Shown here: piece by piece, positions 323 through 610 of the stretch | Layout of the letters: each line of letters starts with the position of its first letter | How positions within the stretch are numbered: position 1 is the first letter of the stretch | Origin: a virus | Taxonomy: Duplodnaviria > Heunggongvirae > Uroviricota > Caudoviricetes | IMG/VR virus record: IMGVR_UViG_2778261708_000011 | DNA: 11,013 nt | Reading direction: 5' to 3' (one strand) | Notes under the pieces: model-generated | What the model saw: only the letters and a program-made list of their open reading frames with translations | What the model was told of the DNA's origin: nothing | The model's database searches: none | Translations under genes and position numbers: made by a program

Positions 323-399
323 TGGTGCGTTGTACTGGGTTCGAACCAGTGACCGATTGCTTAGAAGGCAATTGCTCTGTCCGGCTGAGCTAAAAACGC
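323..399 (-). tRNA. tRNA-Arg, anticodon UCU (reads AGA/AGG)
   Basis: Reverse complement GCGTTTTTAGCTCAGCCGGACAGAGCAATTGCCTTCTAAGCAATCGGTCACTGGTTCGAACCCAGTACAACGCACCA folds as a cloverleaf: D-stem GCTC/GAGC, anticodon stem ATTGC/GCAAT with loop CTTCTAA, T-stem ACTGG/CCAGT with TTCGAAC loop, 3' CCA encoded. One mismatch in the acceptor stem. Confidence 0.8.
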
Positions 400-412
400 A
401 GAATACCGATAA

Positions 413-489
413 TGGACCGCCATCGGAGACTCGAACCCCGCGAAACCAGCTTCGAAGGCTGGCGTTCTATCCCGATGAGCTAATGGCGG
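413..489 (-). tRNA. tRNA-Arg, anticodon UCG (reads CGA/CGG)
   Basis: Reverse complement CCGCCATTAGCTCATCGGGATAGAACGCCAGCCTTCGAAGCTGGTTTCGCGGGGTTCGAGTCTCCGATGGCGGTCCA: perfect 7-bp acceptor stem CCGCCAT/ATGGCGG, anticodon stem CCAGC/GCTGG with loop CTTCGAA, T-loop TTCGAGT, 3' CCA. One D-stem mismatch and an unusual C1, so the exact 5' boundary is approximate. Confidence 0.75.
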
Positions 490-496
490 TATGTGA

Positions 497-572
497 TGGT
501 GGCCCTTGCTGGATTTGAACCAGCGGCCTGGCGATTATGAGTCGCTCGCTCTCACCACTGAGCTAAAGGGCC
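497..572 (-). tRNA. tRNA with CAU anticodon, most likely tRNA-Ile2 (lysidine, reads AUA), ileX/ileZ-like
   Basis: Reverse complement GGCCCTTTAGCTCAGTGGTGAGAGCGAGCGACTCATAATCGCCAGGCCGCTGGTTCAAATCCAGCAAGGGCCACCA: perfect acceptor stem GGCCCTT/AAGGGCC, anticodon loop CTCATAA, T-stem GCTGG/CCAGC, 3' CCA. Closely resembles my recollection of E. coli ileX. Confidence 0.8.
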
Positions 573-581
573 GGGCGCAGG

Positions 582-610
582 ATAATAACGTTACGAAATC
601 AATGTTGCAA
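582..610 (-). promoter_or_regulatory. sigma70-like promoter for the tRNA cluster
   Basis: On the minus strand: -35 TTGCAA (plus 610-605), 17-nt spacer, -10 TATTAT (plus 587-582). The predicted start falls a few nt before the 5' end of the first tRNA at 572. Confidence 0.5.

Follow-up and report, generated by a model that had tools for sequence, protein, structure and literature searches.

Introduction

The closest described relatives of the locus considered here are the ileZ-argN-argO tRNA cassettes of Escherichia coli lambdoid prophages. In Stx2 phages of the 933W/Sp5 type, these tRNA genes stand behind a promoter and are followed by a trailer—in Sp5, the Stx2a prophage of the O157:H7 strain Sakai, the next genes are stx2AB. 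The Sakai prophage Sp14 carries another copy, ileZ7-argN5-argO7 (NC_002695.2, 2,697,893-2,698,142), annotated between a "phage late gene regulator Q" gene (ECs_2750) and a gene for a "TciA/TerB-like protein" (ECs_2749). In Sakai Sp10 a variant with two tRNAs is likewise followed by a TerB-like gene, which indicates that a toxin-free arrangement is in itself common. The host chromosome provides a further point of comparison: K-12 ileX and argU share their anticodons with ileZ and argO, the prophage genes being paralogues gathered in one unit. To our knowledge, K-12 has no tRNA-Arg with a UCG anticodon.

Here we describe the tRNA cassette found in an 11,013-nucleotide stretch of viral DNA (Caudoviricetes; IMG/VR record IMGVR_UViG_2778261708_000011), referred to below as the window. 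The features needed for the argument are listed in the order in which they would be transcribed; all of them lie on the minus strand, which the first-pass annotation of this DNA had left unstated.

1472-783, minus strand: antiterminator gene Q of the Q82 family, 229 aa (Pfam PF06323, E 3.9e-91; PHROG 304 "anti-termination protein Q-like"; RefSeq WP_001059369.1)
799-771, minus strand: candidate late promoter pR', TTGCAA-17-TATATT, overlapping the end of Q (consensus scan, 9/12)
about 722-689, minus strand: intrinsic terminator, presumed tR', a G+C-rich hairpin and then seven U
610-582, minus strand: sigma-70-type promoter TTGCAA-17-TATTAT, with the -35 at 610-605 and the -10 at 587-582 (motif scan, conservation)
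573-581, minus strand: CCTGCGCCC, the G+C-rich discriminator with a short leader, reaching from the -10 to where the mature tRNA begins
572-497, minus strand: tRNA-Ile2 (CAU, ileX type), Sakai ileZ7 (ARAGORN, Rfam, identity to ileX, RefSeq and Sakai annotation)
489-413, minus strand: tRNA-Arg (UCG), argN5 (ARAGORN, Rfam)
399-323, minus strand: tRNA-Arg (UCU), argO7, the analogue of argU (ARAGORN, Rfam)
322-265, minus strand: conserved trailer after argO, common to Stx2 phages (alignment with Stx2a_WGPS6)
149-1, minus strand: 5' part of a TerB/TciA-like moron gene, 49 codons with a TTG start, the rest lying beyond the window edge (translation)

Origin of the Sequence and Relation to Known Cassettes

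Many E. coli O157:H7 chromosomes share the first 1500 nt of the window at 100% identity, and positions 1-2662 match Sakai Sp14 base for base, so that the Q gene, terminator, promoter, tRNAs, and TciA/TerB-like gene are the same and the region 323-610 shows no difference. Past 2662 the window diverges from Sp14. We considered and rejected the idea that the whole window is Sp14: BLAST identity holds over 1-2662 only, is 98.5% over 1-3731, and gives way to a mosaic in the remainder, where the early region beyond 3731 is like that of PPompW-type prophages and resembles Sp14 at 82-87% in patches. The best full-length match, at 96.6%, is to ompW-site prophages with paa in O55:H7 strains, and none of the complete E. 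coli genomes of the collection exceeded that value over the full window.

Two other genes of the mosaic part may be recorded here. The 252-aa open reading frame at 3829-4587 (minus strand) has its counterpart in paa (AcfC-family adhesin Paa) of the ompW-site prophages, from O55:H7 and other strains, that are closest to the window over its full length; Sakai Sp14 lacks paa at that place. A hok/sok-type type I toxin-antitoxin locus is found at 3491-3640 (minus strand; Rfam sok, 103.9 bits) with an open reading frame at 3338-3550 (minus strand), and matching RefSeq loci are annotated hokD / mokC at this site.

The likeness to the cluster of Stx phages that had been proposed from the letters alone is borne out, both by identity to the genes named in Sakai and by comparison with Sp5, whose ileZ2, argN2, and argO2 are identical to the window tRNAs at 75/76, 71/77, and 73/77 positions, respectively. 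The 933W/Sp5-type phages share the tRNA order, the promoter architecture, and the trailer with the window; they differ in what surrounds this core, as Q belongs to PF06530 in Sp5 and to PF06323 in the window, and stx2AB in Sp5 takes the place of the TerB/TciA-like and DUF3927 genes. In the Stx2 phage Stx2a_WGPS6 the homology to the window runs from about 645 to about 265, beginning roughly 35 nt upstream of the -35 and ending roughly 58 nt past argO, and thus spans the promoter, tRNAs, and trailer, whereas Q and the region from Q to the cassette are unrelated to those of the window. As a side observation, the Rfam family STnc100 is found directly after stx2B in both Stx2 phages (L002 4731-4942, 154 bits; L003 2923-3001, 70 bits for a copy cut by the locus end).

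Distribution and Variant Arrays

The 381-bp cassette stretch (265-645) was matched in 3056 of 5426 complete E. coli genomes, although some of the weaker partial matches amount to barely more than one tRNA gene; in 1392 genomes a single place accounts for at least 80% of the stretch, and the most places in any one genome is 13. In the phage collection there are 291 matching records, about 174 of them named as Stx-converting phages. A scan of one genome per species placed the promoter plus tRNA start in Escherichia and Shigella only, plus two metagenome bins.

Every cassette copy examined has Q on one side and the lysis genes on the other, and the slot acts as a tRNA array of variable content. 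The variants keep the promoter and leading tRNA-Ile2 of the window and differ in what follows:

Ile-Lys(UUU)-Thr(UGU)-Gly(UCC), L012 2573-2882
Ile-Lys(UUU)-Arg(UCU), L013 2555-2795
Ile alone, L010 2532-2607
Ile-Arg(UCU), L007 25706-25958

No direct repeats of the kind left by site-specific insertion were found flanking the cassette; the only match was between the two tRNA-Arg paralogues.

The Cassette as a Probable Self-Contained Unit

The feature in the window is the ileZ-argN-argO cassette of E. coli lambdoid prophages, and very likely a self-contained, constitutively transcribed set of decoders for AUA, AGA/AGG, and CGA/CGG whose output Q would boost on induction. It occupies a variable "moron" slot between the Q/pR'/tR' late-control region and the lysis genes. 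Three tRNA genes stand behind a sigma-70 promoter of the cassette's own, which has a G+C-rich discriminator, and a short conserved trailer completes the unit. In the lysogen, transcripts from pR' would end at the terminator at about 722-689, while the cassette promoter would yield one short tRNA precursor; RNase P and 3' exonucleases presumably trim this precursor to the mature tRNAs, whose CCA ends are encoded in the DNA. Upon induction, Q-modified polymerase would pass the terminator and add to tRNA synthesis. TilS is expected to make lysidine on the ileZ product, enabling it to decode AUA, and the lysogen would then be better supplied with tRNAs for codons that core E. coli genes seldom use and that are several times as frequent in the prophage and its cargo genes, with a probable benefit to translation.

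Genes Downstream of the tRNAs

The gene after the tRNAs is TerB-like and not stx, as the first-pass annotation had it. The complete 142-aa protein, taken from an identical RefSeq locus, matches Pfam PF05099 (E 5.4e-13) and PHROG 632 (2.2e-65; "tellurite resistance", category moron). Neither stxA nor stxB directly follows the tRNAs: identical O157 loci run from TerB through DUF3927 (PHROG 1470, "TciB-like"), an ORF of about 1.85 kb, and IS629 to the lysis genes (holin, lysozyme).

The start of the TerB gene has some peculiarities of its own. An ATG at 153-151, with a Shine-Dalgarno-like AAAGGAA upstream, is out of frame with TerB (TTG at 149), and a run of seven A follows it (147-165, minus strand), so that the start may be frameshifted or slippage-prone. 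The annotations of O55:H7 CB9615 (L021 5721-6149) and strain 2013C-4830 (L013 2974-3402) list the TerB-family gene behind the tRNAs as a pseudogene, with a stop inside the frame; the O157 copy identical to that of the window is intact.

The layout downstream invites a different reading of the promoter, namely that it mainly serves the moron, the tRNAs being a processed leader, and that its purpose is expression in the lysogen of the TerB/TciA-like and DUF3927/TciB-like genes or, in Stx phages, basal expression of stx2. The scan found no terminator between argO and TerB, and no stable structure was found in 325-140, where the predicted fold is at the level of shuffled sequence (z = 0.13). Together with the trailer of about 58 nt that is conserved with Stx2 phages, this means that the promoter may feed the downstream moron, and both TerB and DUF3927 fall into PHROG "moron" families. 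Against this, the downstream genes differ among cassettes—stx2A, TerB, DUF3927 alone, or holin directly—which makes the tRNAs, rather than the next gene, the constant part. We therefore regard a promoter that exists mainly for the moron as possible but doubtful. An additional role is put forward just as tentatively: the cassette promoter could also drive Q-independent expression of the following moron in the lysogen (TerB/TciA-like plus TciB-like, or basal stx2 in Stx phages) by way of a tRNA-mRNA co-transcript freed by RNase P/E.

Late-Control Region and Cassette Promoter

As had been claimed, the cassette lies downstream of a Q gene; the two are on the same strand. Of a putative Q82-type antitermination module, the PF06323 Q gene and a terminator are present, the pR' hexamers being a consensus match only; the candidate pR' fits the lambdoid pR'-tR' layout by its place immediately behind Q, with the terminator about 75 nt further on. 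The stem of the presumed tR' is the inverted repeat 693-704 / 711-722, which on the minus strand reads as a G+C stem and then seven T. Minus-strand RNA from 766-686 folds into this hairpin plus U-run at -25 kcal/mol (z = -2.7). The terminator scan reported the hairpin on the plus strand only, owing to that tool's way of counting the T-run; the presumed tR' can act in both directions.

This arrangement raises the possibility that the tRNAs are late-only products, transcribed from pR' when Q suppresses the terminator, and that TTGCAA-17-TATTAT is an inactive chance match. The cassette does sit downstream of Q, pR', and tR', within the late operon. The motif itself occurs once in the window, exactly as first described; to call it near-consensus was generous, as it matches 9/12 positions. 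A consensus scan of 1.6 kb found 6 promoter-like motifs of equal quality where 1.7 were expected, and because such motifs arise about once per kb by chance, the hexamers say little in themselves and the weight falls on position and conservation.

Conservation was assessed in eight cassettes: the window, Stx2a_WGPS6, Sp5, Sp10, and copies from four other E. coli strains. The pattern TTGC[AG][AG]-17 nt-TATTAT-9 nt-tRNA is kept in all eight, with TATTAT invariant, and 7 of the 17 spacer positions vary. The promoter block of the window is identical in Stx2a_WGPS6, and Sp5 matches it in the -10 hexamer and the 9 nt after it; this distance from the -10 to the first tRNA is constant in all copies compared. 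Upstream of the -35, the sequence is unrelated between groups of the eight cassettes, as are the Q genes, and in two copies the T-run of the upstream terminator abuts the -35 hexamer directly. An invariant -10, spacer length, and tRNA distance behind unrelated Q and terminator regions is difficult to reconcile with a chance match.

The G+C-rich discriminator is a further point of likeness to known promoters. Stringently controlled tRNA promoters have G+C-rich discriminators, and the cassette promoter resembles such stable-RNA promoters; by analogy, it may be under stringent control. The first-pass annotation had placed the start of transcription at the first tRNA. The placement of the promoter agrees with this, but transcription is predicted to begin about 3-5 nt ahead of the mature ileZ 5' end and not at that end.

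The primary 5' ends of Sakai have been mapped by dRNA-seq, and a primary transcription start site is reported for the Sp5 tRNAs at the position equivalent to the window promoter (Sy et al. 2020; PMC7547250). Sakai has seven near-identical cassette copies, and reads are hard to assign to a single locus. The published Sp5 start site, the 8/8 conservation, and the upstream terminator jointly support an independent cassette promoter, and with it the earlier claim of expression independent of late antitermination. Q-independent transcription of the cassette is well supported by homology, the copy in the window being presumably active by analogy, and we judge late-only transcription to be improbable.

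The tRNA Genes and Their Integrity

In the whole 11-kb window ARAGORN calls only three tRNA genes, all within the span 323-610 as first noted, whose ends are exact, and with the anticodons CAU, UCG, and UCU. The genes are separated by 7 nt (CAU/UCG) and 13 nt (UCG/UCU).

The gene with the CAU anticodon was labelled "Met" by ARAGORN, a label explained by the unmodified anticodon; it is of tRNA-Ile2 type and not tRNA-Met, judging by its sequence. It is identical to K-12 ileX at 67/76 positions, and an alignment places the acceptor-stem pairs C4-G69 and C5-G68 in both, where elongator metT has U4-A69 and A5-U68. TilS reportedly distinguishes tRNA-Ile2 from tRNA-Met by C4-G69 and C5-G68. The ileX-like identity and these two pairs together imply that the CAU tRNA reads AUA, in line with the first-pass annotation; lysidine modification and charging with Ile are predicted for the ileZ7 product, which would decode AUA once modified.

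ArgRS substrates are recognized through the identity elements A20 and C35, and argN and argO of the window each carry the D-loop A20 and the anticodon base C35. From their anticodons, argN5 is predicted to read CGA and probably also CGG, and argO7 is predicted to read AGA and AGG. Overall, argO is identical to K-12 argU at 54/77 positions, with the same anticodon loop.

Single-base differences were also noted. In Sp5 argO2 (L003 1441-1517) the anticodon loop, CUUCUGA, has G37, where window argO and host argU have A37. The discriminator base of window argN (413-489, minus strand) is U73; in E. coli tRNA-Arg this base is usually A or G.

Could the three genes be decaying relics, that is, pseudo-tRNAs of a defective prophage? 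The weakest of them is argN, whose D-stem in the window has a C11.A24 mismatch (GCTC/GAAC) where Sp5 argN2 has none (GCTC/GAGC). Its Rfam score is 44.4 bits, compared with 54.8 for Sp5 argN2 and 43 for the Stx2a_WGPS6 copy; the low scores in the window and Stx2a_WGPS6 make argN the weakest of the three tRNAs in general, and mismatch and score together place the efficiency of the window argN in doubt. In addition, among related copies there are some that lack argN or that other genomes label tRNA-OTHER. Even so, the scores of all three genes in the window (72.5 bits for CAU, 44.4 for UCG, and 63.3 for UCU) are well above the Rfam gathering score of 29 bits, all three keep an encoded CCA at the 3' end along with the arginine identity elements of argN and argO, and they differ from Stx-phage copies by only 1-7 nt. 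RefSeq annotates the identical sequence as tRNA-Ile, tRNA-Arg, and tRNA-Arg, with a pseudogene flag on none of the three. The check for pseudo-tRNAs thus came out in favor of intact genes, and decay is a very improbable account of the locus.

Codon Usage

Under the reading of the cassette as a self-contained supply of decoders, its anticodons should be considered alongside the codons of the prophage. We counted codons from the Sakai annotation, comparing 55 Sp14 genes (12,072 codons) with 41 backbone genes at 100-150 kb (14,923 codons). The frequencies per 1000 codons are as follows:

AUA: Sp14 7.6, backbone 2.5
AGA: Sp14 7.0, backbone 0.7
AGG: Sp14 4.6, backbone 0.5
CGA: Sp14 4.9, backbone 2.6
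CGG: Sp14 13.0, backbone 2.9
Five codons together: Sp14 37.2, backbone 9.2 (odds ratio 4.2, p about 1e-56)

The backbone sample includes highly expressed genes, and the enrichment of about 4-fold is for that reason overstated. The E. coli genome-wide average of the five codons is roughly 17 per 1000, against which the enrichment in Sp14 would be about 2-fold. The first-pass annotation had pointed to the late genes in particular; the enrichment is present, but it is not specific to them, with 40.1 per 1000 in early genes, 34.2 in late genes, and 68.7 in the cargo genes espJ/tccP/pchC, espJ by itself reaching 83. In structural genes the main contributor is CGG, at 16 per 1000, and TerB has 1 such rare codon in 141.

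Some phage tRNAs replace host tRNAs cut by anticodon nucleases, and colicin D targets tRNA-Arg. A role of this kind, as spares for cleaved host tRNAs rather than as codon supply, was rejected as unsupported and is most unlikely: two of the three tRNAs are indeed tRNA-Arg, and the neighbors carry TciA/TciB-like annotations, names tied to colicin resistance, but the anticodon set matches the codons enriched in the prophage, PADLOC gave no significant match of TerB or DUF3927 to defence systems, and the argO anticodon loop, being that of host argU, offers no obvious escape from a loop-recognizing nuclease.

Significance

The feature is already known, its genes having been named in the Sakai annotation, and the account of it given at first pass is correct but ordinary. 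One more copy adds little when the majority of complete E. coli genomes have a match to the cassette stretch, and its independent promoter had already been seen by dRNA-seq in the Stx2a prophage. If the promoter does feed the next gene, this would matter for the basal toxin output of Stx2 phages in the absence of induction, a point of modest interest. The value of the locus is as a clean textbook case—a tRNA unit that moves, together with its promoter, between lambdoid prophages of differing Q modules and morons.
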